Origin: Schaalia meyeri | GTDB taxonomy: Bacteria > Actinomycetota > Actinomycetes > Actinomycetales > Actinomycetaceae | NCBI RefSeq assembly: GCF_900105015.1 | Contig: NZ_FNLK01000006.1 | Coordinates: 75,480-107,479 of the forward strand | Length of the DNA stretch: 32,000 nt | Direction of reading: 5' to 3' | Position numbers and translations under genes: made by a program | In this document: piece by piece, positions 215-29,366 of the stretch | Position numbering within the stretch: the stretch's first letter is position 1 | How the letters are laid out: each line of letters opens with the position of its first letter | Notes under the pieces: generated by a model | Databases searched by the model: none | The model's input: only the letters and a program-made list of their open reading frames with translations | What the model was told of the DNA's origin: nothing

Positions 215-218
215 CCCA

Positions 219-3923: not shown

Positions 3924-3947
3924 CCGCCTATCTGCGATACTTGAGGC

Positions 3948-5075
3948 ATGAGTGACCTCCACGTGATCATCCCCGCCGGCGGTGCCGGCACCCGCCTGTG
4001 GCCGCTGTCCCGCCGCCGCCGCCCGAAGTTCCTGCTGGATCTGGCGGGGACGGGGCGCTCGCTCCTGCAGGGAACGGTTGACCGGCTGGAGGAGGTAGCC
4101 TCGACGGTGACGATCGTGACGGGGCGAGACCACCGCGACGGCGTGCTCGCCCAGCTGCCCGAATTTGCCGCATCCCGGGAGCGTACCGTCCTCATTGAGC
4201 CCTCCGGGCGCGACTCCATGGCCGCGATCGGCCTGGCCGCCTACGTGGTTCGCGAACGCTTCGGGGACGACGCCATCGTCGGCTCCTTTGCTGCCGACCA
4301 CCTGATCGCCCGGCCCGAGCTGCTCCGCGGCGCCGTCGAGGCGGCCTGCACCGCCGCGGCAGCCGGATACGTCGTGACGATCGGCCTGACGCCCACGGAG
4401 GCTTCGACCGCCTACGGGTACATCGCGCCGGGCCCGGCCTCGGGAGCCGGGGACCGGGCGGCGGATCCCGGCGCCGCCGGGCAAACCCGAACGGTCGCCG
4501 AGTTCGTGGAGAAGCCAGACGCGGCCACGGCAGCGCGCTACGTGAGCGAGGGGTACCTGTGGAACGCCGGCATGTTCATCGTCTCCGCCGGTCAGCTGGC
4601 CCACCACCTGGCCCGCCTCCTGCCCGACATGCATGCGCGCCTGGAAACCATCGCGCGCGCGTGGGACACCCCCGACTTCGAGCACACTCTGGAGGAAAAC
4701 TGGCCGCACCTGACGAAGATCGCGATCGACCACGCCATCGCGGAACCCGTCGCGGCCGACGGGGGAGTGGCCGTCGTCCCCGCCGACGCCGACCTGGGAT
4801 GGACCGACCTGGGCGACTTCGACGCGCTGACCGCCATCGCCACCACCACCGGGCACCTGGGTGAGGCGCTGCGCGTCGAATCCGACGGTGCCGCCGTCTA
4901 CGGCTCTACGGTGGGAGAAGCAGAGGACGGGCCGCTCGTCGCGCTCGTCGGGGTCCCTGACATCGCACTCGCTCTCACCCCCGACGCCATCCTCGTCACC
5001 CGACGGGACCGGGCGCAGGCGGTCAAAGCGATCGTCGAGGAACTGGCGGCAGGCGGGCGAACCGACCTGCTCTGA
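3948..5075 (+). CDS. Mannose-1-phosphate guanylyltransferase (GDP-mannose pyrophosphorylase family, 375 aa)
   Basis: The N-terminus VIIPAGGAGTRLWPLSRRRRPKFLL is the ManC/NTP-transferase signature. It also has EPSGRDSMAAIGLAA, GYIAPG, FVEKPD and YLWNAGMFI blocks typical of ManC-type enzymes without the isomerase domain. Confidence 0.85.
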   Translation: MSDLHVIIPAGGAGTRLWPLSRRRRPKFLLDLAGTGRSLLQGTVDRLEEVASTVTIVTGRDHRDGVLAQLPEFAASRERTVLIEPSGRDSMAAIGLAAYVVRERFGDDAIVGSFAADHLIARPELLRGAVEAACTAAAAGYVVTIGLTPTEASTAYGYIAPGPASGAGDRAADPGAAGQTRTVAEFVEKPDAATAARYVSEGYLWNAGMFIVSAGQLAHHLARLLPDMHARLETIARAWDTPDFEHTLEENWPHLTKIAIDHAIAEPVAADGGVAVVPADADLGWTDLGDFDALTAIATTTGHLGEALRVESDGAAVYGSTVGEAEDGPLVALVGVPDIALALTPDAILVTRRDRAQAVKAIVEELAAGGRTDLL

Positions 5076-5185
5076 ATGGGCCCGAGATGGCCTCCGACAG
5101 GTGTGGTTTCACGGCCGTTTCACGCCGTTAGTGCGGTGAGGTGTGCCGTCCGCCCGGCCTCCAGCCGGGCGCGGCTGCTACCGTG

Positions 5186-6403
5186 ATGGGCAGTAAGGCG
5201 CCCCGACGAAAGGCATTCGACGTGAACAAGCGGACTATCGCCGCCCTCGCAACCACCGTGACAGCGGCCGCACTGGCCCTCGGCTCGTGCTCGACCACGC
5301 CCTCCGCCGTGTCCTCCGCGGACGCGAAGGTGTGCGCCGCCATCTCGGGGGCACACGGGGACGCGTCGACGGATCCCGTGGCGACCGCTCTTAAAGGCGC
5401 AGCCGACGGTGCGGCCATCGCCTACGAGGCGGCATCCGGCCAGGGGGCGCCCGCTTCGCTCGCGGCATCGGGCTGCACCCTCATCGTCGGTGCGGACTCG
5501 ACCATGGCCCAGTCCGTGTCGGAGGCCGCCAGAAACAATCCGCGAGTCAGGTTCGCCCTGGTCGGCGCCTCGTTCGTCAATGGCAAGGGATCCGCGACCT
5601 CGCTGAAGAACGGCTCTGTCGTCAACGTTGCCGCCTCGCAGGCCGCCTACCTCGCCGGGTACGCCTCCGCCGGCATGACGACCACCGGCACCCTCGGCGT
5701 CATCGGCGGCGTGCGCGACAACGTTACGAGCGCGCAGATGTCCGCCTTCTCACAGGGGGTCGACGCCTACAACCGCGCGAACGGCACATCCATCAGCGTG
5801 CTCGGATGGAACACCGCGACCAATGACGGAACCTACGCCGAGAGCACCGATCAGGTTCAAAGCGCTGCCGCAGACTTCATTTCCCGCGGAGCGGACATCA
5901 TCGTGCCGCTGGCGGGCGAAGCGAACATGGGTGCGGCGCGCGCCGTCACCGCGGCCGCAAACCCGCTGGTGCGCCTGGTGTGGTCCGGGCTGACCAAGGC
6001 GGATCTGAAGGGCCTGACCCGCGACGAAGCCCAGTCGCAGGGCGACGTGCCCATGTCCGGGCAGTCCGGGGCAAGCGCGCCCCAACGGGTCGATACCCAG
6101 TCCTTCGCGGACGCATTCAGCTACATCCAGATCTCCGATCAGGTTCGCGCCGCCATCGGCGCGCCCGTCCTGACCGGCATCGTCGTTGACTACGCGAAGG
6201 CCATGGAGACGCTGATTTCCGATGCAACCGCGGGGGCAGACGCGTCAACTGTGTCCGTCTCGCTGGCATCGGGTGGTGTGATCCTCACGGGCTTCGGCGC
6301 CTACACGCCGATGCTGTCTTCCGACCTCAAGCTTGGGCTGTCCGACATGGCGGGCCAGATAGAAACCGGCGGCATGGTGGTGTCCACGCCTTTCGACGCG
6401 TGA
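5186..6403 (+). CDS. BMP-family (PnrA-like) substrate-binding lipoprotein
   Basis: Signal peptide with lipobox LALGSC. BMP/PnrA-like blocks are present (RFALVG, AAYLAGYASAGMTTTGTLGVIGG, DIIVPLAG). The start is uncertain: ATG 5186 or GTG 5222 (the latter preceded by GAAAGG). The track's 5141 start is probably too long. No cognate ABC ATPase or permease genes are adjacent. Confidence 0.8.
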   Translation: MGSKAPRRKAFDVNKRTIAALATTVTAAALALGSCSTTPSAVSSADAKVCAAISGAHGDASTDPVATALKGAADGAAIAYEAASGQGAPASLAASGCTLIVGADSTMAQSVSEAARNNPRVRFALVGASFVNGKGSATSLKNGSVVNVAASQAAYLAGYASAGMTTTGTLGVIGGVRDNVTSAQMSAFSQGVDAYNRANGTSISVLGWNTATNDGTYAESTDQVQSAAADFISRGADIIVPLAGEANMGAARAVTAAANPLVRLVWSGLTKADLKGLTRDEAQSQGDVPMSGQSGASAPQRVDTQSFADAFSYIQISDQVRAAIGAPVLTGIVVDYAKAMETLISDATAGADASTVSVSLASGGVILTGFGAYTPMLSSDLKLGLSDMAGQIETGGMVVSTPFDA

Positions 6404-6626
6404 GTTGAGGCGCCACGCGCCGATCATTTCCCCGCCGAGACTCCCGCCCGCCGCACGAGCGCGGAAACTCGACTCATCGCCGCGCAGCCACGGCCTCGTT
6501 GATGATAGCCAGGACCAAACGGAAGCCGGCGCCCCTGCGCGGACCTGGAGCCTCACCGCAGGCTTCAAGACGGGCACGGATCATCCGGGGCGCCGCTATC
6601 CTGGGGGAAGCGATGCAGGAGGAAAC

Positions 6627-7775
6627 ATGCAGCTGACGAACGTGACGGATGTGCTCGCGCTGACTCGCCAAATGATCGACATCCCCTCGGTGTCGGATCA
6701 GGAAGGCCCACTGGCGGACGCGGTCGAATCCGCGCTGCGCGATGCGGGCTTCGGGTCGGTGCCGCCCCTTCAGATCCTGCGCGACGGGGACGCTGTGTTG
6801 GCGCGAACCCAGCTGGGACTCGGCCAGCGCGTCGTCCTGGCTGGGCACCTGGACACCGTGCCCATCGCGGATAACGTGCCCGGCCGCACCGAGGAGCGTG
6901 ACGGTGTGGAGGTGTTGTGGGGCCGCGGCTCGGTCGACATGCTCGGCGGGTGCGCGGCTGCCCTGGCGCTCGCCTGCGAGGCCGGGAAAGCGGTACGCGG
7001 GGGAGCGTTCAGCGTGCTGACATCGGACGTTACGTGGATCTTTTATGACCACGAGGAGGTTGCCGCCCACCTCAATGGCCTGGGGCGCGTCCAACGCAAT
7101 CACCCCGATTGGCTCGCGGGTGACCTGGCGTTGCTGGGGGAACCCACCGCCGGGCACGTGGAGGGCGGGTGCAACGGGACGCTGCGCGTCATCGCACACT
7201 TCCCGGGCCGGGCCGCGCACTCCGCGCGCGCCTGGATGGGCCACAACGCGATCCACGCGATGGCCCCCGTCATTATGCGAATCGCCGCCTACGGGAACCC
7301 CGTCGTCGACATCGACGGGCTGGACTTCCGCGAGTCCCTGTCGGTCGTGCGCGTGCGGGGCGGGGCCGCCAACAACGTGATCCCCGAGGCCGCCTCGATG
7401 ACGGTCAACTACCGCTTCGCGCCCTCCACCCGCGCGTCGGACGCGCTGGCGTGGGTGCGGGGGCTCTTTGAGGGGACGGGAGCGCGAATCGAGGTCGACG
7501 ACCTGTGCGAGGGCGCGCTCCCCGGCGCTCATTCGCCCATCGCCGAGCGTTTCCTGGCGGTCGCTCGCTCAGTCGCGGCCGAGAGGGGCTGTGAGCTGCG
7601 GATCGGCGCCAAGGTCGGGTGGACGGACGTCGCTCGCTTTTCCCAGGCGGGGGTGCCCGCCATGAACTTTGGCCCCGGGGATCCGCTGCTGGCGCACACG
7701 CGCGACGAACACGTGCCAGCATCGGATATCGTCAGGGTGTACGATACGCTGCGCGCCTTCGTGCTCGCGCTGTAG
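6627..7775 (+). CDS. dapE: Succinyl-diaminopimelate desuccinylase (M20 peptidase, 382 aa)
   Basis: ATG 6627 is preceded by AGGAGGA. The protein has IDIPSVSDQEGPLAD, LAGHLDTVP, an M20 dimerisation-domain region and a C-terminal AHTRDEHV motif. The track ORF from 6405 is an upstream in-frame extension without coding character. Confidence 0.85.
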   Translation: MQLTNVTDVLALTRQMIDIPSVSDQEGPLADAVESALRDAGFGSVPPLQILRDGDAVLARTQLGLGQRVVLAGHLDTVPIADNVPGRTEERDGVEVLWGRGSVDMLGGCAAALALACEAGKAVRGGAFSVLTSDVTWIFYDHEEVAAHLNGLGRVQRNHPDWLAGDLALLGEPTAGHVEGGCNGTLRVIAHFPGRAAHSARAWMGHNAIHAMAPVIMRIAAYGNPVVDIDGLDFRESLSVVRVRGGAANNVIPEAASMTVNYRFAPSTRASDALAWVRGLFEGTGARIEVDDLCEGALPGAHSPIAERFLAVARSVAAERGCELRIGAKVGWTDVARFSQAGVPAMNFGPGDPLLAHTRDEHVPASDIVRVYDTLRAFVLAL

Positions 7776-7816
7776 CGGGCGCTTTGCGGCCCAGAATCAA
7801 CCAGGGAGGCATGACC

Positions 7817-8548
7817 ATGAGCAAGCCAGACAACGCCTATCGTCGGGGATCCGTCGTCCTGCGCGGGGCGCAGATCCCGCGGCTGACGGCGGACGCGTCG
7901 CTGCTCCAACCGGAGCCGAGCATGGATTGGAAGCACACGGACCCGTGGAGGGTCCTGCGCATCCAGTCCGAATTCGTCGAGGGTTTTGAAGCGCTCGCAA
8001 AAGTGGGACCCGCTGTTTCCGTGTTCGGTTCCGCGCGCACCCTCCCGGAGGATCCGCTGTATCGGAGCGCGCAGCGCATCGGCGAGCTGCTGGTGCAGCG
8101 CGGTTACGGGGTCATCACGGGCGGGGGACCGGGCATGATGGAGGCCGCGAACCGCGGTGCGTGGGAGGCCGGCGGCACCTCGGTGGGCCTGGGCATTGAG
8201 CTTCCGCACGAGCAGGGCCTCAACCAGTGGGTGAACCTGGGCGTGAACTTCCGATACTTTTTCGCCCGCAAGACGATGTTCGTGAAGTACTCTCAGGGCT
8301 TCATCGTCATGCCCGGCGGGTTTGGGACCATGGACGAGCTCTTCGAGTCCGCGACCCTCGTGCAGACGGGCAAGATTCGTTCCTTCCCGCTGGTGCTCGT
8401 GGGCGCAAACTATTGGTCAGGATTGGTTGACTGGATTCGTTCCGCCATGGTCGATGCCGACATGATCTCTCCTGACGATGTTGGCCTGCTTCACGTGGTC
8501 GATGATCCGCAGGAAGCTGTTCGTTTGGCGACGGGTACCCAGCACTAA
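7817..8548 (+). CDS. LOG family protein (TIGR00730 Rossmann-fold nucleotide-binding / cytokinin riboside 5'-monophosphate phosphoribohydrolase-like)
   Basis: It has the GGGPGMMEAANRGA and PGGFGTMDELFE signature motifs. GGGAGG (7804-7809) is optimally spaced for ATG 7817, and ATG 7811 is an alternative. The track start at 7619 overlaps dapE and is unlikely. Confidence 0.85.
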   Translation: MSKPDNAYRRGSVVLRGAQIPRLTADASLLQPEPSMDWKHTDPWRVLRIQSEFVEGFEALAKVGPAVSVFGSARTLPEDPLYRSAQRIGELLVQRGYGVITGGGPGMMEAANRGAWEAGGTSVGLGIELPHEQGLNQWVNLGVNFRYFFARKTMFVKYSQGFIVMPGGFGTMDELFESATLVQTGKIRSFPLVLVGANYWSGLVDWIRSAMVDADMISPDDVGLLHVVDDPQEAVRLATGTQH

Positions 8549-8964: not shown

Positions 8965-9594
8965 TCAGCGCTTGACGGCAACCGCCAGCCCGTCTCCGAC
9001 GGGCAGGAGTGTCGCCGCGAACTCATCGCAGTCGCGCAGGTAGTTCACAACCTCGCGTGCGACGACGGTGCGAGCGTCGCGCCGGGCGGGGTCGGCGACC
9101 TGGTCGTGCCACAGGGCATGCACGAAGGCGATGGTGCCGCCCGGACGCAGGATGCGCACCGCATGGTCGAGGTACTGGGGGGTTTCATCCAAGTCACCGT
9201 CCAAGACAACCATGTCGTAGCCGCGCGCGGCCATGCGTGGCAGCACGTCCAGTGCGCGCCCGGCGATGAGGCGCGTACGGTGAGAGGAGACGTCGGCGGC
9301 GGCGAAGTTGCGACGAGCGTGCCCCAGCAGCTCGGATTCCACGTCGATCGTCGTCAAGACGCCGTCGGAGGCCATTCCGTCCAGGAGCCACAGCCCGGAA
9401 ACGCCGACGCCCGTTCCCACCTCAAGGACGGCGCGCGCGCCGGACACGGCGGCGAGCATGCGCAGTGCGGCGCCGGTTCCAGGAGACACGGGGGCGGCCC
9501 CCAGCTCGGATGCGACGGCCCGCGCGGCGGTCAGCGCGTCGCTCTCCGCCGCGTAATCCTCGGTGTACACCCACGTCTGGGCTTTGTCGGCCAT
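8965..9594 (-). CDS. Class I SAM-dependent O-methyltransferase (caffeoyl-CoA OMT-like, 209 aa)
   Basis: Translation from ATG 9594 begins MADKAQTWVYTEDY. It has SAM-binding motif I VLEVGTGVGVSGLWL, then DMVVLDGD and LRPGGTIAF. The track ORF extends to 9969, but that upstream part is Arg/Pro-rich with no coding character. Confidence 0.85.
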   Translation of the reverse strand: MADKAQTWVYTEDYAAESDALTAARAVASELGAAPVSPGTGAALRMLAAVSGARAVLEVGTGVGVSGLWLLDGMASDGVLTTIDVESELLGHARRNFAAADVSSHRTRLIAGRALDVLPRMAARGYDMVVLDGDLDETPQYLDHAVRILRPGGTIAFVHALWHDQVADPARRDARTVVAREVVNYLRDCDEFAATLLPVGDGLAVAVKR

Positions 9595-9787
9595 CGCCTG
9601 ATCCTCACGTCGTTCCGTATGCTCGGCGAGGCGCATACGCGCCCGCGCCTCCCCACGCACCAGGGTACAGGCGAGGCGCTGGGAGGTCGTGATGGCGCTC
9701 CGGCACGTGAAGAAAAGCAGGGGTCCCGGCCCGCATCGAAAGCGTGTCCTCGCCGATCGGGACGAGGCCACTGAGCGGACGTGAGCG

Positions 9788-10918
9788 TCAACGCTGGATG
9801 GGGGAGACCCCCAGCGGGCGGCCGGCGAGGCCGCGGTTCGTTGAGGCCAGCTTCTTGCCCAGGGCGGCGAGTACCTCGGCGGCGGGGCCGGACTCGACGG
9901 ACACGGGCGTACCCCGGTCGCCGCCTTCGCGCAGCGCGATGTCGAGCGGGACCTGCGCGAGGAGGGCAACCCTGTAGCCCAGCTGGGCGCTCAGTCGCTC
10001 GGAAACGGACTGGCCGCCCCCGGAGCCGAAGAGCTCCAGGCGGGAACCGTCGGGCTGGGGCAGGAAGGACATGTTTTCGACGACGCCGATGACCTTCTGG
10101 TTCGTCTGGGAGGCGATCGATCCGGCGCGCTCGGCGACCTCCGCGGCAGCGACCTGCGGGGTCGTGACGACCAGGATCTCGGAGGTGGGAAGCAGCTGCG
10201 CGATCGAGATCGCGACGTCTCCCGTGCCGGGAGGCATGTCGATGAGCAGGACGTCCAGGTCGCCCCAGAACACGTCCGCCAGGAACTGCTGGAGGGCACG
10301 GTGGAGCATGGGGCCGCGCCAGATGACGGCCTGGCCGTCGGGAACGAACATGCCGATGGAGATGACCTTGACGCCGCCGGCGCCAATCGGTGGGATCATC
10401 ATCCCGTCGATGACCTGCGGGTCGCGGTCCACGCCGAGCATGCGGGGGATCGAAAAACCGTAGATGTCCGCGTCCATGACGCCGACCTTGAGCCCCCGGG
10501 AGGCCAACGCGGCGGCCAGGTTTGCGGTCACGGAAGACTTGCCCACGCCGCCCTTTCCGGAGGTAACGGCGATGACGCGAGTGAGGGAGTCGGGGCGTGA
10601 GAAGGGAATCTCGCGCTCGGGGCGTCCGCCGTTGAGTTTCTCGCGCAGAGCCTTCTTCTGCTCGTCGTTCATGACGCCCATCTCGACGGCGACCTTCTGG
10701 ACTCCCTCAATGGCTCCGACGCGTTCGGTGACGTCCTGTGAGATGGTCGTGCGCAGGGGACAACCGGTGGTCGTGAGCAAAACAGTGACGGTGACGGAAG
10801 AACCGTCAATCGCAACCAGATCGGGGGTCACCATGTTGAGGTCGGTGATAGGACGACGGATCTCGGGGTCAATGACCTGGCCGAGAGCGTCCATGACGGA
10901 ATCAAGCGTGACTGGCAT
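9788..10918 (-). CDS. mrp: Mrp/ApbC family Fe-S cluster carrier ATPase (DUF59 + ParA-like P-loop)
   Basis: The N-terminal DUF59 region is VIDPEIRRPITDLNMV...TTTGCPL. It has the deviant Walker A VTSGKGGVGKSSV and then DMPPGTGD. The start is taken at MPVTLDS (10918). The alternative ATG 10948 would overlap the upstream gene. Confidence 0.9.
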   Translation of the reverse strand: MPVTLDSVMDALGQVIDPEIRRPITDLNMVTPDLVAIDGSSVTVTVLLTTTGCPLRTTISQDVTERVGAIEGVQKVAVEMGVMNDEQKKALREKLNGGRPEREIPFSRPDSLTRVIAVTSGKGGVGKSSVTANLAAALASRGLKVGVMDADIYGFSIPRMLGVDRDPQVIDGMMIPPIGAGGVKVISIGMFVPDGQAVIWRGPMLHRALQQFLADVFWGDLDVLLIDMPPGTGDVAISIAQLLPTSEILVVTTPQVAAAEVAERAGSIASQTNQKVIGVVENMSFLPQPDGSRLELFGSGGGQSVSERLSAQLGYRVALLAQVPLDIALREGGDRGTPVSVESGPAAEVLAALGKKLASTNRGLAGRPLGVSPIQR

Positions 10919-20737: not shown

Positions 20738-23104
20738 ATGACGCTGGATCTGACGCAGTCGCTGCCCTCACACGTGCGCGCGACCTCGGGACGCCCCGTT
20801 GAAGATTCGACCCTGATGGAGGTGTGGCAGGGACTGTCCGCCGCCATCGTCGATCAGATTGCTGACAACTGGGCCGCCACTACTGAGCGCTATGCTAAGG
20901 GTCGTCAGGAACACTACTTCTCAGCGGAGTTCCTCATGGGGCGAGCCCTGCTGAACAACCTGTCGAATCTCGGCCTCGTCGATGAGGCGCGCGAGGCTCT
21001 GGCCCGCTACGGCCTGGACCTGGGGCAGGTCCTCGAGGAAGAACCCGATGCGGCCCTCGGCAACGGCGGCCTCGGCCGCCTGGCCGCCTGCTTCCTGGAC
21101 TCCTGTGTCACCCTCGACCTGCCCGTTCGCGGCTACGGCATTCTTTACCGCTACGGCCTGTTCAAGCAGCTCTTCGACAACGGCTTCCAGACCGAGCATC
21201 CCGACCCGTGGATGGAAGACGGCTACCCCTTCGTGACGCGCCGCGAGGAGCTCGCCCGCATTGTTTCCTACGCGGATCTGACCGTGCGCGCCGTCCCCTG
21301 CGACATCGCGATCACCGGATATGGCACCAAGAACGTGGGTACCCTGCGCCTGTGGAAGGCCGAGCCCATCGAGGAATTCGACTACGACGCTTTCAACTCC
21401 CAGCGTTTCACCGACGCGATCGTTGATCGCGAGCGCACCATGGACATCTCCCGTGTCCTGTACCCCAACGACACTACGTTCGAGGGCAAGGTCCTGCGCG
21501 TCCGCCAGCAGTACTTCTTCTGCTCCGCCTCGCTGCAGGAGATCGTCGAAAACTACGTGCGTCACCACGGCACCGACCTGACCGGCTTCGCGCGCTACAA
21601 CGCCGTCCAGCTCAATGACACCCACCCCGTCCTGGCCATCCCCGAGCTCATGCGCATCCTCATGGACCAGCACGGCTTGGGCTGGGAGGACGCGTGGGCT
21701 GTCGTCTCCAAGACCTTCGCCTACACGAACCACACGGTCCTGGCCGAGGCCCTGGAGACCTGGGACATTCACATCTTCGACCGACTGTTCCCGCGCATCT
21801 CCGAGATCGTGCGCGAGATCGACCGTCGCTTCCGTATCGACATGGCCGGCCGCGGCCTCGACCAGGGAACCATCGACTACATGGCCCCCGTCGCGGGCAA
21901 CTCCGTGCGCATGGCGTGGATCGCCTGCTACGCCTCCTACTCCATCAATGGTGTCGCCGCCCTGCACACGGAGATCATCAAGCGCGACACCCTCAAGGAG
22001 TGGCACGCCATCTGGCCCGAGCGCTTCAACAACAAGACCAACGGCGTCACCCCGCGTCGCTGGCTCAAGCAGTGCAACCCGCGCCTGGCCGCCCTCCTCG
22101 ACGAGGTCACCGGCTCCGATGCGTGGGTTCGCGACCTCACGGAGCTGGCCAAGTTTACCTCCGCCGGATCCGAGGCGGTTCTCGAGCGTCTCGACCGAAT
22201 CAAGTATGAGAACAAGGTGGACTTCGCCGCCTGGGTGAAGGAACGCGAGGGCGTCGACATCGACCCCACCGCGATCTTCGACGTTCAGATCAAGCGCCTG
22301 CACGAGTACAAGCGCCAGCTGCTCAACGCGTTCTACGTCCTGGACCTGTATTTCAGGCTCAAGGACGACCCGACCCTGGACACCCCCAGCCGCGTCTTCA
22401 TTTTTGGAGCGAAGGCGGCCCCCGGTTACATCCGCGCCAAGGCCATCATCAAGCTCATCAACGCTATCGCCGAGCTGGTGAACAATGACGCGGACATCAA
22501 CGGCCGCATCAAGGTCGTTTTCGTTCACAACTACAACGTCTCGCCCGCCGAGCACATCATCCCCGCCGCCGACGTCTCCGAGCAGATCTCGATGGCCGGC
22601 AAGGAGGCATCGGGCACGTCGAACATGAAGTTCATGATGAACGGCGCGCTGACCCTGGGCACCCTGGACGGGGCGAACGTGGAGATTCTCGAGGCCGTGG
22701 GCGAGGAGAACGCCTATATCTTCGGCGCGACGGACGAGCAGCTGCCCGAGCTGCGTCGCTACTACGATCCGCGTTGGCACTATGAGAACGTCCCTGGCCT
22801 CAAGCGTGTCATCGACGCCCTGACTGACGGTACGCTGTGCGACTCGGGTTCCGGCTGGTTCCACGACATCCGCCACTCGCTCCTCGAAGGTGGATTCGAT
22901 CCGGCCGACGTCTACTACGTCCTGGGTGACTTCGCATCCTACCGCGAGACCAAGGATCGCATGGCCGCGGATTACCGCGACCGCTCGGCCTGGAACGCGC
23001 GCGTGTGGGCGAACATCTCCCGCTCCGGTCGTTTCTCCTCCGACCGCACGATCTCCGACTATGCGCGCGAGGTCTGGCGCATCGAGGGTGAGCCGATCGC
23101 CTGA
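20738..23104 (+). CDS. glgP: Glycogen/maltodextrin phosphorylase (GT35, 788 aa)
   Basis: It has the PLP-lysine block EASGTSNMKFMMNGALTLGTLDGANVEI, the N-terminal YFSAEFLMGRAL and GNGGLGRLAACFLDS, and NDTHP. Confidence 0.95.
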   Translation: MTLDLTQSLPSHVRATSGRPVEDSTLMEVWQGLSAAIVDQIADNWAATTERYAKGRQEHYFSAEFLMGRALLNNLSNLGLVDEAREALARYGLDLGQVLEEEPDAALGNGGLGRLAACFLDSCVTLDLPVRGYGILYRYGLFKQLFDNGFQTEHPDPWMEDGYPFVTRREELARIVSYADLTVRAVPCDIAITGYGTKNVGTLRLWKAEPIEEFDYDAFNSQRFTDAIVDRERTMDISRVLYPNDTTFEGKVLRVRQQYFFCSASLQEIVENYVRHHGTDLTGFARYNAVQLNDTHPVLAIPELMRILMDQHGLGWEDAWAVVSKTFAYTNHTVLAEALETWDIHIFDRLFPRISEIVREIDRRFRIDMAGRGLDQGTIDYMAPVAGNSVRMAWIACYASYSINGVAALHTEIIKRDTLKEWHAIWPERFNNKTNGVTPRRWLKQCNPRLAALLDEVTGSDAWVRDLTELAKFTSAGSEAVLERLDRIKYENKVDFAAWVKEREGVDIDPTAIFDVQIKRLHEYKRQLLNAFYVLDLYFRLKDDPTLDTPSRVFIFGAKAAPGYIRAKAIIKLINAIAELVNNDADINGRIKVVFVHNYNVSPAEHIIPAADVSEQISMAGKEASGTSNMKFMMNGALTLGTLDGANVEILEAVGEENAYIFGATDEQLPELRRYYDPRWHYENVPGLKRVIDALTDGTLCDSGSGWFHDIRHSLLEGGFDPADVYYVLGDFASYRETKDRMAADYRDRSAWNARVWANISRSGRFSSDRTISDYAREVWRIEGEPIA

Positions 23105-23115
23105 CGCGTGCGCGT

Positions 23116-23153
23116 GAGTGAGGCCCGGGACCGAGCGGTCCCGGGCCTCACTC
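23116..23153 (+). terminator. Strong intrinsic terminator after glgP
   Basis: Perfect 17-bp stem GAGTGAGGCCCGGGACC (23116-23132) / GGTCCCGGGCCTCACTC (23137-23153) with a GAGC loop. A T-rich tract follows (ATTGATGCTCTTGTGATCTGTGTCTCGTTTTCC). Confidence 0.75.
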
Positions 23154-23193
23154 ATTGATGCTCTTGTGATCTGTGTCTCGTTTTCCGAGATAG

Positions 23194-23253
23194 CTGTATT
23201 ACTGTGTTGACACAGTTGGGAAAGGCTGTCATTGTATTACTGTATTAATACAG
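23194..23253 (+). promoter_or_regulatory. Operator/promoter region of the GntR-ABC cassette
   Basis: This is an AT-rich island in GC-rich DNA. It has an inverted repeat ACTGTGT-TG-ACACAGT (23201-23216) containing TTGACA. It has a perfect 14-bp palindrome CTGTATTAATACAG (23240-23253) of the GT-N6-AC type. An 11-bp direct repeat TGTATTACTGT occurs at 23195-23205 and 23233-23243. Confidence 0.6.
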
Positions 23254-23274
23254 CAAGACAGGAGGGGTACATTG

Positions 23275-23637
23275 ATGCGCATCGATGACACCCGCCCCAT
23301 CTGGATCCAGCTGGCCGACGCCTTTCGCGCCCGCATCATGAACGGCACGTGGAAGCCCGGAGCGAAGATCCCATCCGTCCGAGACCTCGCCATCGAGGCC
23401 GGCACGAACCCCAATACCGTCCAACGAGCCCTCGCCACCCTCGACGACGAAGGACTCACGATCCCGAAGCGAACCGCCGGGCGATTCGTCGCCACTGACG
23501 ACAAGGCCCTGCATGCCCTGCGAAGGGACGACGCGCGGGCAGCGGCAGACACCTACGTCCGCACCTGCCTGGCGCTCGGAATCGACCGGGAAAGCGCCCA
23601 CAGTCTCGTCGATGAGCATTGGAACTCCGACTCATAG
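23275..23637 (+). CDS. GntR family transcriptional regulator, YtrA subfamily (120 aa)
   Basis: GGAGGGG RBS is upstream of ATG 23275. The winged HTH is KIPSVRDLAIEAGTNPNTVQRALATLDDEGL. The very short C-terminal region (about 50 aa, two helices) is characteristic of YtrA-type GntR proteins paired with ABC transporters. Confidence 0.85.
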   Translation: MRIDDTRPIWIQLADAFRARIMNGTWKPGAKIPSVRDLAIEAGTNPNTVQRALATLDDEGLTIPKRTAGRFVATDDKALHALRRDDARAAADTYVRTCLALGIDRESAHSLVDEHWNSDS

Positions 23638-23657
23638 CACACAGGAGGCATCCCCTC

Positions 23658-24386
23658 ATGACCACCCAATCCCCGGGCGCCACAACGGCGTCCCCTGGCC
23701 TCGTTCACATCGACGGCCTGACCAAGCGCTACCGCGCGACGACCGCCCTGCAGGACTTTCACCTGACCCTCGACGCCGGCCACATCGTCGGCCTCATGGG
23801 ACCCAACGGCTGTGGCAAGACCACGCTGTTGAAGATCCTGGCCGGCGTCCTGTCCGACTACGACGGCACCGTCGCCATCAACGGGCACCGCCCCGGACCC
23901 GTCTCCAAGTCCATCGTCTCCTACCTGCCCGACGCCGACTTCCTCAACGTGGAATGGACCGCGCGCAAGGTCATCGCCGAATACTCCCGGTTTTTTGCCG
24001 ACTTCGACGCCGACAAGGCGGCCGCCATGGTCGACTTCTACGGCCTGCCGCAGGGGCGGCCACTGCGCGAAATGAGCAAGGGCATGGGTGAGAAGCTCCA
24101 GATCAGCCTCATCATGTCCCGGCGCGCCCGCGTGTTCCTGCTGGACGAGCCCATCAGCGGCGTCGATCCCGCCACCCGCGACGTCATCCTCGAGGGGATC
24201 CTGCGCGAGTTCGACCCCTCCTCGCTGCTCATCATGTCCACCCACCTCATCTCCGACATCGAACACTTCGTCGACTACGCGCTCTTCATGAAAGGGGGGA
24301 GCATCTTCCTCCAAGGCGACGCCGACGACCTGCGTGCCACGCGGGGGGACTCCCTCGACGCAATCTTCCGAAAGGAGTACCGCTGA
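23658..24386 (+). CDS. ABC transporter ATP-binding protein (242 aa)
   Basis: AGGAGG RBS lies 9 nt upstream of ATG 23658. It has Walker A GPNGCGKTT, the signature-like MSKGMGEKL, Walker B VFLLDEP and an H-loop MSTHL. Confidence 0.9.
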   Translation: MTTQSPGATTASPGLVHIDGLTKRYRATTALQDFHLTLDAGHIVGLMGPNGCGKTTLLKILAGVLSDYDGTVAINGHRPGPVSKSIVSYLPDADFLNVEWTARKVIAEYSRFFADFDADKAAAMVDFYGLPQGRPLREMSKGMGEKLQISLIMSRRARVFLLDEPISGVDPATRDVILEGILREFDPSSLLIMSTHLISDIEHFVDYALFMKGGSIFLQGDADDLRATRGDSLDAIFRKEYR

Positions 24387-25201
24387 TGTACCCGACACTG
24401 CTGTCATATGAAATCCGCTCCCGAGCCTGCGCCGACGCGCGCATCCTCGCGGCGCTCGCCGCGGTCGCCGCGGCCACCCTCGGCGTCATCGCCCTCGGTA
24501 TCCCCGGCCTGAGCGGTTCCGCCACGACACTTGCCTACATCATATGTATCGCGACCCCCGTCGGGTTCGCGGTGATCGGGATGAGCGACTACTGGAAGAC
24601 CCTCTACGGCCAACGCGGCTACTTCACGATGAGCCTGCCGACTTCGGGGGCGTCGATCTTCTGGGCAAAGGTCACCCGGATTTTCCTCGAATCACTCGTC
24701 GCCCTCATTTTCACCATCGGAGGCATCATTGCTACTGCCTCCGTGACGGCCTGGCGTAACGGATTGACCCTGACCGAGTACACCGCCAATTTTCGCGCCG
24801 CCTTCGCAATCTTCCCCACCTCGGTCCTGGTCATGCTGGCGATCGGGCAGATCGTTTCGACGTTCGGCCTCATCGTGCAAGCCTGCGCCGTCATGACGAT
24901 CGGGGCTGAGGGACGCTTCAACCACATGGGCTTCGGTGCGCCGATAATAGGTTTCATCATCCTTTACCTCATCAACCAAGTGCTCAGCGGCGTCGGTACC
25001 CTCTTCTCCCCGCTGTCCGTGAACATCACGACCGGGCGATTGAGTACCGAGATCATGTGGACCTCGTTCATCTCCACGATCAATACTGATGAGTCGCCAA
25101 ACGTCATTGGGGTGGGGGCATACGTACTCTTCCCGCTGTTCGCTCTCGCCCTGGGGATCTGGGCCTCTCGCTCCATCGAGAAGCACACGTCCCTGCGCTA
25201 G
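24386..25201 (+). CDS. Polytopic membrane protein, putative permease partner of the ABC ATPase (271 aa, family not recognised)
   Basis: The ATG overlaps the ATPase stop (TGATG). It has about 6 hydrophobic segments. I recognise no conserved motif. It uses visibly more A/T-ending codons than its neighbours (tat, gaa, att, ttt, aat). Confidence 0.7.
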   Translation: MYPTLLSYEIRSRACADARILAALAAVAAATLGVIALGIPGLSGSATTLAYIICIATPVGFAVIGMSDYWKTLYGQRGYFTMSLPTSGASIFWAKVTRIFLESLVALIFTIGGIIATASVTAWRNGLTLTEYTANFRAAFAIFPTSVLVMLAIGQIVSTFGLIVQACAVMTIGAEGRFNHMGFGAPIIGFIILYLINQVLSGVGTLFSPLSVNITTGRLSTEIMWTSFISTINTDESPNVIGVGAYVLFPLFALALGIWASRSIEKHTSLR

Positions 25202-25206
25202 TCACC

Positions 25207-25258
25207 CGTCCTCGCGCGCGAGCCCAGCGTCCGCCCGCACCGCGAGCGCGCGAGGACG
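25207..25258 (+). other. GC-only 13-bp hairpin between the permease and CPBP genes (possible partial terminator or processing site)
   Basis: CGTCCTCGCGCGC (25207-25219) pairs perfectly with GCGCGCGAGGACG (25246-25258), leaving a 26-nt loop. There is no T tract. It starts 6 nt after the permease stop. Confidence 0.35.
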
Positions 25259-25328
25259 ATGGCAGCGTCGACGAAAGGAGGCGAGGCCCCCAACGCGCGT
25301 TTGCCAGGACCGAGCACAGGAGGTTTCG

Positions 25329-25937
25329 ATGTCCTACTTATCGTCAGCGATCAGCGCCTTCGTCCAACTTGGCCTGGTCCTCGTGCTTCCCCTCGCGTGG
25401 TGGGCGCTGGCCGCGCGCCGGACCGTTGCCTTTCTCACGTGGATCGGTCTGCGCAGACCGACGTGGCGCGCCAGCGCGCCGCAGCTCGCGTGCGCAGCGC
25501 TGTCGTGGGTATTCGTCGGGCTGGTTTCGATTGTGCTGCTGCAATCGCTCTCACGCGGTGAGCCCGCCTCGCGTTTCGCTGGAAGCGGCCTTGCCGGGGT
25601 TGTTCCGGTCCTGCTCTTCGCGATCATCCAGACCTCCCTCGCCGAGGAGATCTTCTTCCGAGGCTTCCTCGGAAAACGGCTCATCGCCAGATGGGGATTC
25701 GGGGTCGGAAACGCGGTGCAAGCCGTGGTCTTCGGTCTGCTCCACGTCGCCCTGTTCGCCTCCATCGCGGGCCCGATACAGGTCGTCCTGATCGGCGCCG
25801 CAACAGCTGCCAGCGGGTGGATGACGGGGTGGATCAACGAAAAGGGGGCGGAGGGATCAATCATTCCGGGCTGGTTGCTGCACGCGACGGCCAACCTGAT
25901 CGTCGGACTTGGAACCGCCTTCAACCTACTGGCCTGA
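25329..25937 (+). CDS. CPBP family intramembrane glutamic endopeptidase (CAAX protease / Abi family, 202 aa)
   Basis: AGGAGG RBS lies 5 nt upstream of ATG 25329. It has motif 1 LAEEIFFRGFLG, motif 2 FGLLHV and motif 3 WLLHATANL, embedded in about 6 TM helices. The track start at 25089 overlaps the permease and is unlikely. Confidence 0.85.
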   Translation: MSYLSSAISAFVQLGLVLVLPLAWWALAARRTVAFLTWIGLRRPTWRASAPQLACAALSWVFVGLVSIVLLQSLSRGEPASRFAGSGLAGVVPVLLFAIIQTSLAEEIFFRGFLGKRLIARWGFGVGNAVQAVVFGLLHVALFASIAGPIQVVLIGAATAASGWMTGWINEKGAEGSIIPGWLLHATANLIVGLGTAFNLLA

Positions 25938-25943
25938 AACCCG

Positions 25944-25977
25944 ACGCCACCAGCGACGCGCGGGTCGCTGGTGGCGT
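25944..25977 (+). terminator. Intrinsic terminator after the CPBP gene
   Basis: Perfect 14-bp stem ACGCCACCAGCGAC (25944-25957) / GTCGCTGGTGGCGT (25964-25977) with a 6-nt loop, 7 nt after the stop. It is followed by TTGCCTCTGCC. Confidence 0.65.
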
Positions 25978-26116
25978 TGCCTCTGCCGGGGTTATGCCGC
26001 TGGTCGGGTTGTGCCTGTGCCGGGTCCTCAGGAAACGCACACCGGGCATTGAGGAATCATGCAGGCTCTTATGATGGTGTAAGAGCATTGCGCGATGAAT
26101 CCTCGAAAGGAAACCT

Positions 26117-27097
26117 GTGGAACCAGCGACCGAGTCATTCGTCCCTGCGAGCCCGGATCTGATCTGGATGGTGTTCATACAACAGGTGCTCGTCCTTATC
26201 GCATGGGTCATCGGCCTCGTTGTGCGCCGCGTGCTCAAGAACCGCATGACGATGTCGACGGCATCGGCGACCCTGGCCGGACTGGCCGGGCTGTGGGGTG
26301 GGCTGGTCATCGCGGGGTGGATTTTCGACTCGGGCGACCTGTGGAAACCGGACATGATCGGTGTCGCCGCGCTGGTTGCCCTCGTCGTCGTGGTGGTGGT
26401 CGCCCTGGTCACCGCTTACCTGCACCCGCGCCCCGGCCTCGAACCAATCGCCGAAGTTGCCCGGCGTGGAGAATCCGACTCCCGCGAGTTCAAGTCCAGC
26501 GCCCGGTGGAACATGCGGACGGGCAAGCGCGACGAAGCGATCGAAACCGTCATCGCCAAGACCGTCGCCGCGTTCATGAACTCCGGCGGCGGCACACTCC
26601 TGATCGGCGTCGACGACGACGGTCGGCTCATCGGCCTCGGCCCCGATTACGCGACCCTCAAGACTCCGGACGCCGACCGCTTCGAGCTGTGGATTCGCGA
26701 CCTGTGGAGGCAGCGCCTGGGGACCAACGCGGCCGCGTTGCCCCGGCTCGATTTCGCGGAGGCCTCGCAGCCACAGGAGGGCTACGAGCGCCAGGAGGTG
26801 TGTCGGGTCACCATCCCGCCCTCGCCTCGTCCCGTCTACCTGAGGGGGGCCAAAGGCAAGGGGGAAGCGGAGCTGTGGGTGCGTGTCGGCAATTCGACGC
26901 GGCGCCTTGAGGTGGTCGACGCGGTGCAATACGTGTCGCTTCGCTGGCCCGAAAGCGTGCGAGTGTCCCCCCTGACGCGCGTGAGGCTGTTCATGACGCT
27001 GCGCCACCGCGAGACGCCCACGCGCCTGCCGGGCGTCGTACAGCGCGTGCTCGCCGAGGGTGGGAGCGGCGAGATTCCCGCATCCGAGGGCGAATGA
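26117..27097 (+). CDS. Membrane-anchored AlbA_2 (Schlafen-type) domain protein (326 aa)
   Basis: GTG 26117 is preceded by AAAGGAAA, and ATG 26168 is an alternative. Three N-terminal TM helices are predicted: LIWMVFIQQVLVLIAWVIGLVV, ATLAGLAGLWGGLVIAGWIF and MIGVAALVALVVVVVVALVTAYL. An AlbA_2 core follows: ESDSREFKSS...IAKTVAAFMNSGGGTLLIGVDDDGRLIGL...LWVRVGNSTRRL. No HTH or ATPase module follows it. Confidence 0.8.
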   Translation: MEPATESFVPASPDLIWMVFIQQVLVLIAWVIGLVVRRVLKNRMTMSTASATLAGLAGLWGGLVIAGWIFDSGDLWKPDMIGVAALVALVVVVVVALVTAYLHPRPGLEPIAEVARRGESDSREFKSSARWNMRTGKRDEAIETVIAKTVAAFMNSGGGTLLIGVDDDGRLIGLGPDYATLKTPDADRFELWIRDLWRQRLGTNAAALPRLDFAEASQPQEGYERQEVCRVTIPPSPRPVYLRGAKGKGEAELWVRVGNSTRRLEVVDAVQYVSLRWPESVRVSPLTRVRLFMTLRHRETPTRLPGVVQRVLAEGGSGEIPASEGE

Positions 27098-27341
27098 CCC
27101 GCGGGGGAAGTCGGATACGAGGTCTATGACAACGGCGGCATCAACTGAGGGCGCAGCTCCTCAGCGTTGCCGAAGCAGTTCCTGGCCGCTGTTACCTCTC
27201 ACGTGAGCCTGTCGCCCGGTGATGTTGCCCGGCGATCTCGCACGTTCACCCGCCGGGGTACACGCCGATCGAGCTGCCCACACGCGCCCCAGCGGGTTTT
27301 CGCCGCCGACCAATGCACACGGCGCGCGGCACGCGAACGCC

Positions 27342-29114
27342 TCACTCGCCGCCCTTGCGGCGACGGATGCGCTTGCGGGCGCGAGGCGCGCGCTCACCAC
27401 CGGCTGAGGGGCCGCCCTCGGTGCCGCCAGAACGCGGCGAGTGTTCACCGCGTCCGCGGCCCCTCGTGCCGCGATCGGAGCGGCCACCCTTGCCGGCGTT
27501 CAGCGTGCGATCACCGTCCTGGGAGCCGCGCGACCGGGACCCGCGGGTTGAGCGCGAGGGATCAGAGGACTTCGCCGACCGCCCACGCCCGCCGCGCGAG
27601 GAACGCGACCCGCCGCGTGAGCCGCGGCCTCGTCGCTCAGAGCGGGGTGAGGAGCCTCCCAGATCCTCGAGGAACTCGGCGTCCAGGCCGGGGCGCGTGC
27701 GCTTGGCGCGCGGCAGGCGGCCCGTCGTGCCCTCGGGGATGTCCAGGTCGGTGAACAGGTGAGGGGAGGTGTGGTAGGTTTCGAGCGGATCCGGTACACC
27801 CAGGCCCAGGGCCTTGGAGATGAGGGACCAGCGCGGCGTGTCATCCCAGTCCACGAAGGTCACGGCCGTCCCCGAGTTGCCGGCGCGGCCCGTGCGCCCG
27901 ATGCGGTGGATGTAGATCTTCTCGTCTTCGGGGCACTGGTAGTTGATGACGTGCGTGACGTGCGTGACGTCGATGCCGCGCGCGGCGACGTCCGTCGCAA
28001 CCAGGACGTCGACCTTGCCGTTACGGAACGCGCGCAGTGCCTGTTCGCGCGCGCCCTGGCCCAGGTCGCCGTGCAGCGCGCCAACGGCGAAGCCGCGGGC
28101 GGTCAGATCCTCGCCGAGGCGCGCGGCGGTGCGCTTGGTGCGGCAGAAGATGACGGTCCGGCCGCGTCCCTGGGACTGCAGGATGCGGGAGAGAACCTCG
28201 ACCTTGTTCATGGAGTGAACGCGGTAGATCACTTGCTTGACGGTGTTGACCGTCTGGTTCTGGTCGTCGGGGTCCTGGGCGCGAATGTGCGTGGGGTGGA
28301 CCATGAAGCGGCGCGCGAGGGCCACGACCGGTCCGGGCATGGTCGCCGAGAACAGCATGGTGTGGCGGTTCTCGGGGACGCGCGCGAGCAGGGTTTCCAC
28401 GTCCGGCAGGAAGCCGAGGTCGAGCATCTCGTCGGCCTCGTCAAGGACGACGGTTTCGACGCCGGACAGGTGCAGGTGACCCTTGCGCAGCAGGTCGATG
28501 AGGCGGCCGGGCGTGCCCACGACGATGTCAGCGCCGCGCGTGAGGGCGTCGATCTGGGGCTCGAAGGCGACACCGCCGTAGATCTCCACGATGCGGGTAG
28601 ACAGGTACTTGGAGGCGCCGCGCAGGTCCTGGGCTACCTGCTTGGTGAGCTCGCGGGTCGGCAGGATGATGAGGGCCTGCGGCTGATTCGGGTTGAGCAG
28701 CTGCTCGTAGCCCTCTTCGTCGGGCGCGATGACGTCTTCGAGGACGGGGATGCCGAAGCCGAGGGTCTTGCCGGTGCCGGTCTTTGCCTGCCCGATGATG
28801 TCGTGGCGTTCCAGCGCCGGGCCCAGCGTCAGCGCCTGGATGGGGAAGGGATGCGTGATGCCCTTGTCCTCGAGAGCATCGACGATCGGGTCGGTGACGC
28901 CGAAGTCCGCGAAGGATTTCTTGTCCAGGTCCTCGTCCCCCCTGTCGGTGATGTCGGGGGTGGCTTCCTGTTCCTTTGAGACGACCGGGTGAATGTTGCC
29001 GAGGCGGACAACGCCCGCGGAGTATTCGACGGGCGAGGCCGGGACCTGCGCGGCCTGTTCGTTATTGTCGTTGTCGGGGGCGGGCACGGCTGCCTCACTG
29101 CTCGTGGTAGTCAC
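27342..29114 (-). CDS. rhlE: DEAD-box ATP-dependent RNA helicase with an Arg/Gly/Ser-rich C-terminal tail
   Basis: It has the Q motif FADFGV...GITHPFPIQ, motif I AKTGTGKT, PTREL, motif II DEAD (VLDEADEM), SAT, and motifs V-VI ARGIDV and HRIGRTGRAG. The start is uncertain. GTG 29114 was chosen because the 29115-29291 part of the ORF has weak third-position G/C bias. The symbol is given by analogy to mycobacterial RhlE, which shares this neighbourhood. Confidence 0.9.
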   Translation of the reverse strand: MTTTSSEAAVPAPDNDNNEQAAQVPASPVEYSAGVVRLGNIHPVVSKEQEATPDITDRGDEDLDKKSFADFGVTDPIVDALEDKGITHPFPIQALTLGPALERHDIIGQAKTGTGKTLGFGIPVLEDVIAPDEEGYEQLLNPNQPQALIILPTRELTKQVAQDLRGASKYLSTRIVEIYGGVAFEPQIDALTRGADIVVGTPGRLIDLLRKGHLHLSGVETVVLDEADEMLDLGFLPDVETLLARVPENRHTMLFSATMPGPVVALARRFMVHPTHIRAQDPDDQNQTVNTVKQVIYRVHSMNKVEVLSRILQSQGRGRTVIFCRTKRTAARLGEDLTARGFAVGALHGDLGQGAREQALRAFRNGKVDVLVATDVAARGIDVTHVTHVINYQCPEDEKIYIHRIGRTGRAGNSGTAVTFVDWDDTPRWSLISKALGLGVPDPLETYHTSPHLFTDLDIPEGTTGRLPRAKRTRPGLDAEFLEDLGGSSPRSERRGRGSRGGSRSSRGGRGRSAKSSDPSRSTRGSRSRGSQDGDRTLNAGKGGRSDRGTRGRGRGEHSPRSGGTEGGPSAGGERAPRARKRIRRRKGGE

Positions 29115-29366
29115 GATCTGCCTTGTCTCCCGGGCATTTCCGGGGTCGGGGTCGGTGCCGATCGCGCATTGTCTGGCGCGGGGATACACGTCCGCGCGTA
29201 CGTGGTATGTGTCAAGAATGCGACCGGTCTCTTTTTGGTCGCTTTTCAGTGTAACGGTGCTGACGTCGATAGCGAGGGAGGGGCTGGTCACAGCGCGTTG
29301 TTTCGTGGAGTGGGAACGGGAATGGAACGGGGCTCATGGGGCGCTGCCAGGCACTATGCTGGAGTC

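Follow-up and report, generated by a model that had tools for sequence, protein, structure and literature searches.

Prokaryotic Schlafens (pSlfn) were shown only in 2026 to act as anti-phage tRNases, with specificity that comes from fused soluble sensors (PMC13056530). The characterised members, RorSlfn5 and EcoSlfn7 (Perez Taboada et al. 2026, PMC13056530) and CbCash (PMC13462974), combine a Pfam PF04326 domain and the motif Ex4(E/D)xK with a non-catalytic module in one polypeptide. That module is a soluble sensor, such as an Ig-like, Csx15, HisKinase or DUF262 domain. Here we describe a gene in a 32,000-nucleotide stretch of the Schaalia meyeri genome (contig NZ_FNLK01000006.1, positions 75,480 to 107,479, forward strand; hereafter the window). 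Its product shares the domain, the motif and the one-polypeptide design of pSlfn, but its accessory module is an N-terminal three-helix anchor. Also unlike the described pSlfn genes, it is found outside defence islands, no PADLOC model exists for it, and in Actinomycetota it is inherited vertically and in synteny. We favour, at a probability of roughly one half, the reading that it encodes a single-gene, membrane-tethered pSlfn endoribonuclease whose activity is controlled by its transmembrane (TM) module.

Other described proteins resemble it in part. The mammalian proteins SLFN11/12/13/14 and the tRNase domain of SAMD9 have the same fold (Foldseek probability 1.00; template-modelling score, TM-score, 0.46-0.60 for the domain-only model) and aligned Glu/Glu/Lys/Asp residues. 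The mammalian Schlafens, however, are soluble and carry two AlbA_2-like lobes per chain plus a linker and a helicase, whereas the window protein is single-lobed and, by prediction, membrane-bound. The canonical AlbA_2-HATPase_c_4-HTH arrangement, represented by DIP2311 of Corynebacterium diphtheriae (PDB 3lmm), shares the AlbA_2 domain and provides its best structural match (TM-score 0.57; root-mean-square deviation 3.9 Å). It differs in having an ATPase-like and helix-turn-helix (HTH) module, which the window protein lacks, and in lacking a membrane anchor. The initial annotation of this DNA had named such modules as the usual companions of bacterial AlbA_2 domains, in agreement with a survey that counts 34% HisKinase and 19% HisKinase-HTH fusions (PMC13056530). 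SNIPE (PD-lambda-1; Saxton et al. 2026, PMC13190303) is alike on paper, with its N-terminus outside, a TM anchor, a cytoplasmic nuclease and tethering as a safeguard. The two proteins are not homologous. SNIPE combines a single TM helix with DUF4041 and a GIY-YIG DNase, which cleaves phage DNA once injected, while the window protein has three TM helices and a Schlafen RNase-type domain. They are alike in topology and logic only.

Both the domain family and the chemistry of the nuclease are already known; the membrane-anchored architecture is new. The initial annotation could not place this architecture in any described system. No family in PADLOC-DB v2 matched the protein at E<=1, and the main text of the two 2026 pSlfn surveys (PMC13056530, PMC13462974) mentions no membrane-anchored form. 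Because those surveys classify by Pfam and ECOD domains, a TM-only N-terminus would fall into their "unannotated" bin, and their main text is silent on membranes. Our literature search found no paper linking a Schlafen to a membrane anchor or to Actinomyces.

A Schlafen domain with conserved active-site residues

The gene and the parts of its product that bear on nuclease function are as follows.

26117..27097, + strand: Schlafen gene (3TM-Slfn), complete coding sequence, 326 residues plus stop, GTG start
26471..26956, + strand: Schlafen/AlbA_2 nuclease-type domain, residues 119-280 (Pfam, AlphaFold2, Foldseek, conservation)
26471..26494, + strand: catalytic motif Ex4ExK, E119-S-D-S-R-E124-F-K126 (invariant in 20 and in 26 diverse homologues, two alignments)
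26615..26617, + strand: D167 in GVDDDG, third acidic active-site residue (invariant in the family alignment)
26957..27094, + strand: variable basic C-terminal tail, residues 281-326 (net charge +4.3; predicted local distance difference test, pLDDT, 36-60; two low-confidence helices)

The AlbA_2 (Schlafen-core) homology proposed in the initial annotation is well founded. Residues 119-264 match Pfam SLFN_AlbA_2 (PF04326) over its full model (positions 1-117 of 118); the E-value is 6.5e-17, and the score of 62.6 bits clears the cut-off of 25.3. This is the only Pfam family found in the protein at E<=0.1; HATPase_c_4, HTH, KH, HD, DUF4041 and GIY-YIG did not appear, and an NCBIfam search gave no match. 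AlphaFold2 modelled the full-length protein with a pLDDT of 75.6 and a predicted template-modelling score (pTM) of 0.59, and the domain alone with 83.2 and 0.81. When both models were searched with Foldseek, the top 33 matches were all Schlafen, SAMD9 tRNase or bacterial AlbA_2 structures, at probability 1.00. The domain-only model reached TM-scores of 0.55-0.60 against DIP2311 and SAMD9, and of 0.44-0.52 against SLFN5/11/12/13/14.

Past the end of the Pfam match, the conserved core goes on as far as an invariant ...Y..RWP near residue 278. Since conservation continues to about residue 280, the variable tail is 46 residues long. A short tail had been foreseen, as about 35 unstructured residues; it is instead longer, basic and modelled with two helices, at low confidence.

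The Glu/Asp/Lys constellation expected of a Schlafen nuclease is retained. E119, E124, K126 and D167 are invariant, and in sequence and profile searches of PDB chains the Ex4ExK motif aligns with 'ESQSIEFK' of pig SLFN11. E119 falls at chain index 237 and D167 at chain index 280 of a 929-residue human SLFN11 chain, and residues 138-172 align with chain positions 251-285 without a gap. We take native SLFN11 to be 901 residues long. If the chain carries a 28-residue N-terminal tag, an offset that we infer, E119/E124/K126/D167 would correspond to E209/E214/K216/D252 of SLFN11. E209 is the residue mutated in PDB entry 7zep. The signature Ex4(E/D)xK is the catalytic signature of Schlafen nucleases (PMC13056530) and is needed for tRNA cleavage by SLFN11, RorSlfn5 and CbCash (PMC13056530, PMC13462974). 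In CbCash, E17, D22 and K24 together with Mg2+ lie at the scissile phosphate of tRNA loops (PMC13462974).

An AlbA_2 domain could instead bind nucleic acid without cutting it. Such a protein would serve as a membrane tether for DNA or RNA, for example in positioning nucleoids or plasmids or in sequestering a regulator. The SAMD9 AlbA_2 domain was crystallised with DNA (7ksp), the tail of the window protein is basic, and databases call the family 'AlbA family DNA-binding domain-containing protein'. That name, however, is one of several generic automatic labels, which also include "ATP-binding protein" and "helix-turn-helix domain-containing protein", and Pfam finds no HTH or other DNA-reading module. 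Without catalysis, it is hard to see why all four active-site residues stay invariant across at least 46-90% sequence divergence. We therefore regard a non-catalytic binder as very unlikely.

Three predicted TM helices precede the nuclease domain

The remainder of the protein, N-terminal to the Schlafen domain, divides as follows.

26117..26158, + strand: acidic N-terminus, residues 1-14, predicted outside the cytoplasm (net charge -1.4 across the family)
26159..26227, + strand: TM helix 1, residues 15-37 (hydropathy peak 2.54; AlphaFold2 helix 13-39)
26228..26257, + strand: polybasic cytoplasmic loop 1, residues 38-47, consensus RRLLRxRVxxS (net charge +2.8 across the family)
26258..26326, + strand: TM helix 2 (TM2), residues 48-70, with a G58xxxG62 small-residue motif (hydropathy peak 1.69; AlphaFold2 helix 48-69)
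26351..26422, + strand: TM helix 3, residues 79-102 (hydropathy peak 3.28; AlphaFold2 helix 78-102)
26423..26470, + strand: juxtamembrane linker, residues 103-118, consensus PIAEVAxRG (mean pairwise identity 48%)

The helices were assigned from Kyte-Doolittle hydropathy, AlphaFold2 helices and family-wide conservation, and all three agree with the three TM helices that had been predicted at the outset. Block-mean pLDDT along the three-helix stretch is 72-89. Over 20 homologues, the N-terminus (net charge -1.4) and loop 2 (-1.3) are acidic and loop 1 is polybasic (+2.8). By the positive-inside rule this pattern predicts that the N-terminus lies outside and the Schlafen domain in the cytoplasm, where the initial annotation had also placed the domain from the single sequence. 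The protein is therefore predicted to hold a Schlafen domain with an intact active site at the cytoplasmic face of the membrane by means of its three-helix module.

The module has conserved features of its own. In TM2, G62 is invariant and G58 is at least 90% conserved, and both the G58xxxG62 motif and the loop-1 motif (RRLLRGRV.LS) are common to different orders. A profile of the TM module alone, searched for fusions with other effectors, recovered just fragments of the same family, so the module has not been shuffled onto other effectors.

Other Schlafen proteins carry unrelated membrane modules of two to five TM helices (P0162, P0260, P0189 and P0227). One of these, P0162, is a 268-residue TM-bearing variant from Halopseudomonas, a gammaproteobacterium (locus L162, 10001-10807). 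As these modules are unrelated, Schlafen domains may have become membrane-anchored on more than one occasion.

The architecture is conserved in a patchily distributed family

A word-indexed search recovered 426 relatives, and essentially every full-length one, down to about 46% identity, has three TM helices followed by AlbA_2. The combination is therefore not a chance fusion. In a scan of one genome per species of the Genome Taxonomy Database (GTDB), at least 572 species, in the Actinomycetota, encode a relative. Carriers include Actinomyces, Schaalia, Pauljensenia, Microbacterium, Propionibacteriaceae, Micropruina, Tessaracoccus, Nakamurella, Kineosphaera and Gordonia, and the nearest named relative of the window protein is from Actinomyces mediterranea (89%). 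Within the phylum the distribution is patchy, covering some genera of several orders. HMMER, run exhaustively against 1.84 billion representatives, returned 8,536 matches. About 35 clusters at 50% identity are full-length with the three helices; the remaining matches share the Schlafen domain only. Since Actinomyces and Schaalia from the human mouth and gut commonly carry the family, experiments are tractable with available strains.

The whole protein is under purifying selection. We compared the window gene with 12 sister genes and calculated pairwise ratios of nonsynonymous to synonymous substitution (dN/dS). Values were 0.07-0.17 for the Schlafen domain, 0.08-0.37 for the TM module and about 0.3-0.46 for the C-terminal tail. 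On average, pairs of sequences are 69% identical in the nuclease domain, 35-47% identical in the TM helices and 26% identical in the tail. By both measures the TM module is looser than the nuclease yet still constrained.

Soluble proteins, too, carry this Schlafen subtype (160-195 bits against the family profile), at their C-terminus. At the N-terminus they have GmrSD_N/DUF262, EVE+Mrr_N+DUF262, a trypsin-like peptidase or an unannotated region. Among soluble proteins, the domain has its nearest relatives in defence-type fusions (DUF262/GmrSD_N and EVE-Mrr_N). This is a further likeness to pSlfn, as DUF262-Slfn is the architecture of EcoSlfn7, a validated anti-phage protein (PMC13056530).

The gene occupies fixed positions among housekeeping genes

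Published pSlfn genes lie within 10 kb of a known defence gene in 69.6% of cases (PMC13056530), and the initial annotation had proposed looking for enrichment near defence genes. Our results speak against it. The Schlafen gene is vertically inherited and sits at fixed, genus-specific positions among housekeeping genes. The window open reading frames (ORFs) scanned with Pfam, several in 1-8,500 being outside the scan, are all housekeeping and include no defence-type domain. Upstream are genes for Mrp/ApbC, MgtE, YflT, aminopeptidase P, asparaginase, an amino-acid permease, PHP, MarC and glycogen phosphorylase. Nearer to the gene come a module of GntR regulator, ATP-binding cassette (ABC) ATPase and membrane protein, and then a CPBP/Rce1-like protease. 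The Schlafen gene is followed by a convergent DEAD-box helicase, a MiaE_2-like protein and DUF3107.

In Schaalia and Pauljensenia the order glgP-GntR-ABC-membrane-(CPBP)-Slfn-(ankyrin)-DEAD is kept. Within this clade the Schlafen protein shows 69-89% identity, much as the ABC ATPase and the helicase do. In Actinomyces sensu stricto the gene instead lies between luxS and pfs, and in A. faecalis only metabolic genes are found within 10 kb on each side. Microbacterium has it between a DUF4916/NUDIX gene and a bifunctional-nuclease-domain (BFN) gene, and Nakamurella-like genomes between a pyridoxal-phosphate (PLP) decarboxylase and Dps/GT87. When the neighbours at 80 loci were clustered, context was conserved within genera and no partner gene was common to them.

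As separate observations on the Actinomyces locus, luxS and pfs (MTA/SAH nucleosidase), which flank the Schlafen gene on the same strand, encode two successive enzymes of the activated methyl cycle (9238-11868 of L164, Actinomyces faecalis CP063418.1; also L026-L046). A homologue of the AI-2 (autoinducer-2) exporter lies near the Schlafen gene in the same group.

Signs of mobility, too, are scarce. The GC content of the gene (0.675) is close to that of the window (0.668), and its third-position GC (0.84) is similar to that of adjoining genes, indicating native composition. There was no match among 50,697 phage records, and IMG/VR gave one weak, domain-only match. The sole full-length plasmid match is on a 415-kb replicon of Actinomyces oris. 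PADLOC was run on 123 non-redundant neighbour proteins from 28 diverse loci, and no family matched more than three members. Matches of the ABC-transporter ATPase (member 1 of this set) to mad3/AriA/mad8 are confined to its N-terminal 40-50 residues and look generic. The set also gave two HEC-01A, two AbiLi and a few PDC matches; 20 candidate proteins were tested as the source of the HEC-01A and AbiLi matches, and none was. A neighbouring ABC-F protein (EttA-like, housekeeping) is a candidate source of the HEC-01A signal. The DEAD-box helicase of the window has only weak matches to generic helicase models.

This context could be attributed to a non-immune, housekeeping RNase at the membrane. 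Such an enzyme would process or turn over RNA as a matter of routine, in the manner of RNase Y or membrane-bound RNase E, or would serve in the quality control of membrane-translated mRNAs. The fixed syntenic position in each genus near housekeeping genes, among them a DEAD-box RNA helicase in Schaalia, fits this explanation, as do native GC and strong purifying selection. In addition, 30.4% of published pSlfn genes lie away from defence genes, and the same study considered that these might have a non-immune role (PMC13056530). However, the helicase adjacency is convergent and Schaalia-specific rather than family-wide, the family is found in only some genera of several orders, and the nearest relatives of the domain are the defence-type fusions described above. 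RNase Y itself differs in having KH and HD domains, neither of which Pfam finds in the window protein, and in being near-universal in its lineage where this family is patchy. A routine housekeeping role is thus doubtful, and the loss alleles described below count further against it. Whatever its function, the family is a clean, well-populated example of the approximately 30% of prokaryotic Schlafens outside defence islands, whose role the earlier work left open. It bears on whether Schlafens have non-immune roles in bacteria.

Natural deletion alleles and a plastic slot

The slot was surveyed in metagenome contigs with the upstream ABC membrane gene as an unbiased bait. At one fully syntenic locus (L142) an unrelated 113-residue ORF replaces the Schlafen gene, with no remnant. 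Two loci (L083, L092) carry an in-frame deletion of residues 57-272, and in a third (L151) residues 121-193, including the catalytic motif, are deleted. In allele P0322 (L166-L168) homology stops at residue 124, and this allele was found on six contigs. Frameshift allele P0327 (L169-L170) was found on eight contigs of up to 181 kb. Locus L097 is also among the natural loss-of-function alleles. Deletions of the nuclease domain occur in several independent samples. From these alleles and the one empty slot we conclude that the gene is dispensable and the slot plastic, which counts against a strictly housekeeping RNase.

Two apparent measures of loss were set aside. A pseudogenisation rate from 9/35 bait-selected disrupted loci was rejected, as frameshift calls were equally common in a glgP control (4/12) from the same assemblies. 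For this reason only large deletions and recurrent lesions were counted as real. The absence of the Schlafen gene from 38/69 bait loci is likewise misleading, because most of these come from a lower-GC lineage with a rearranged locus.

In about 35 bait loci (L088-L160) of that sister lineage there is no Schlafen gene between the ABC module and the ankyrin gene. The slot there holds two paralogous 4-TM proteins of ~170 residues on the opposite strand (L088, 6814-9900; L119, 3057-4600). In L088 it also holds a 105-residue ORF and a 389-residue protein with an HTH-like N-terminus and an HExxH motif; on reading their sequences, we take these as putative YbjQ-like and ImmA/IrrE-like proteins. GC is 0.52 in the slot against 0.61 in the flanks, and the cargo thus looks horizontally acquired.

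Closer relatives of the window also vary around the gene, through CPBP, ankyrin, malic-enzyme and insertion-sequence (IS) insertions. A 363-residue ankyrin-repeat protein lies 3' of the Schlafen gene in most sister genomes (L007-L022, at ~9000-10100) but is missing from the window (27097-27342), L009 and L032. In L001, L013 and L018 this gap contains insertions of a malic enzyme and an ISL3 transposase. The gap before the DEAD helicase was considered as a defence hotspot and rejected. Its contents are the ankyrin protein, malic enzyme and ISL3 transposase, and the sole PADLOC match is weak (ankyrin to PDC-M72A, 5.5e-06).

Overall, the picture comes close to one that the initial annotation had named as contrary to its proposal, namely homologues that are housekeeping genes, uniformly present and never at variable or defence loci. 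Yet the family is patchy across the phylum, has deletion alleles and occupies a plastic slot.

A model for membrane control of a Schlafen nuclease

We propose that the membrane-tethered pSlfn would work as follows. The domain would be a divalent-metal-dependent RNase, by analogy with SLFN11/13, RorSlfn5 and CbCash. Its most likely substrates would be tRNA loops, and possibly rRNA too. Because it has a single lobe where mammalian Schlafens have two, pairing or oligomerisation may be needed for activity. The TM module would sequester the nuclease from bulk substrate and control its self-association, with G58xxxG62 in TM2 as the candidate contact. The cue would probably be a conserved state of the host membrane, such as envelope damage, depolarisation or a perturbation during phage entry or lysis. 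A host-membrane state is favoured over a fast-evolving phage protein because the TM module and polybasic loop are conserved across orders, not shuffled and not diversifying. Once activated, the enzyme would cut translation RNAs, resulting in growth arrest. That tethering can restrain a nuclease is known from SNIPE, which becomes toxic without its TM helix (PMC13190303).

A more specific and tentative version of this model makes the three-helix module a sensor. Depolarisation, damage to lipids or envelope, entry of a phage genome or the action of a holin would change the cytoplasmic membrane physically; the module would couple that change to Schlafen self-association and so switch on cleavage of tRNA or rRNA. 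This is possible, at well under even odds. If true, it would be a membrane-gated Schlafen, a mode of sensing undescribed for the superfamily in any domain of life, and one fixed in the core chromosome of many Actinomycetota rather than in defence islands. The family thus bears on whether Schlafen nucleases can be controlled by membrane tethering or by membrane state.

Several points weigh against a membrane-controlled pSlfn, and in particular against an immune one. RNase activity, substrate and oligomeric state are all drawn from homology, the topology is a prediction, and the triggers are hypothetical. Some Schlafens keep the fold but lack the catalytic residues or have non-nuclease roles (PMC13462974). 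The housekeeping context, the stable position and GC, the near-absence from mobile elements and the near-background level of defence genes in the neighbourhood all speak against immunity. A strictly housekeeping role is opposed in turn by the patchy phylum-scale distribution, the deletion alleles and the other cargo in the sister-lineage slot. The abortive-infection effector first suggested for this gene therefore stands in part: its soluble relatives are defence-type, deletion alleles exist and the slot is plastic, but the defence-island context is missing. As the main use of the proposed growth arrest, phage defence and a general brake under envelope stress appear about equally probable. We consider a routine housekeeping RNase, and likewise a non-catalytic binder, less likely.

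The resemblance to SNIPE raises another form of defence, one by position. A tethered nuclease would meet incoming phage nucleic acid, or phage RNA at the entry site, while the host is spared; this would be direct defence and not abortive infection. SNIPE uses the same logic with the same predicted topology, its N-out anchor and cytoplasmic nuclease being tethered against autoimmunity, and pSlfn proteins are validated anti-phage effectors (PMC13056530). A monocistronic gene with its own probable promoter, loss alleles and a plastic slot would all suit such a system. However, characterised Schlafens cut tRNA or other RNA and not injected double-stranded DNA (PMC13462974, PMC13056530), and the window protein has no DNA-binding accessory domain such as DUF4041. 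The gene shows no defence-island association and little sign of mobility, and its TM module is conserved under purifying selection with no sign of an arms race. Defence by position is therefore unlikely.

The 5' region and neighbouring genes

An alignment of eight sister loci defined the region upstream of the Schlafen gene.

26032..26116, + strand: conserved 5' region of the Schlafen gene
26049-26054, + strand: -35-like TTGAGG, within the conserved 5' region
26070-26075, + strand: -10-like TATGAT, invariant in the eight loci
26105-26111, + strand: Shine-Dalgarno sequence GAAAGGA, 5 nt upstream of the GTG, invariant in the eight loci

The GTG is also invariant, and together with GAAAGGA it supports the start codon at 26117. 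Conservation of TATGAT, GAAAGGA and GTG suggests that the gene probably has its own promoter; a scan of 23000-27500 for consensus sigma-70 promoters and terminators gave no match. A perfect inverted repeat with 7-bp arms, GCTCTTA-N8-TAAGAGC (26065-26086), overlaps TATGAT and was considered as an operator. It was dropped, as the arms are not kept in the sister loci. Rfam gave a single match in the window, a tRNA gene at 957-1027 (+ strand, 51 bits), and none near the Schlafen gene.

Three neighbours of the gene have features of their own. A CPBP/Rce1-like intramembrane protease is encoded at 25329-25937 (+ strand), or by a longer ORF at 25089-25937, the start codon being uncertain. Among Schaalia lineages it is present in some (the window, L001-L003, L024, L021 and L042) and absent from others (L005-L020). 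Further upstream, at 23272-25201 (+ strand), a short GntR regulator (121 residues), an ABC ATPase and a 271-residue multi-TM protein with no Pfam family form a conserved module, which is also found in other chromosomal contexts of related lineages. It presumably resembles modules of the YtrA type. On the other side, the DEAD-box helicase (27342-29291, - strand) ends in a C-terminal tail of ~150 residues that is rich in Arg, Gly and Ser (RGG/RS-like).

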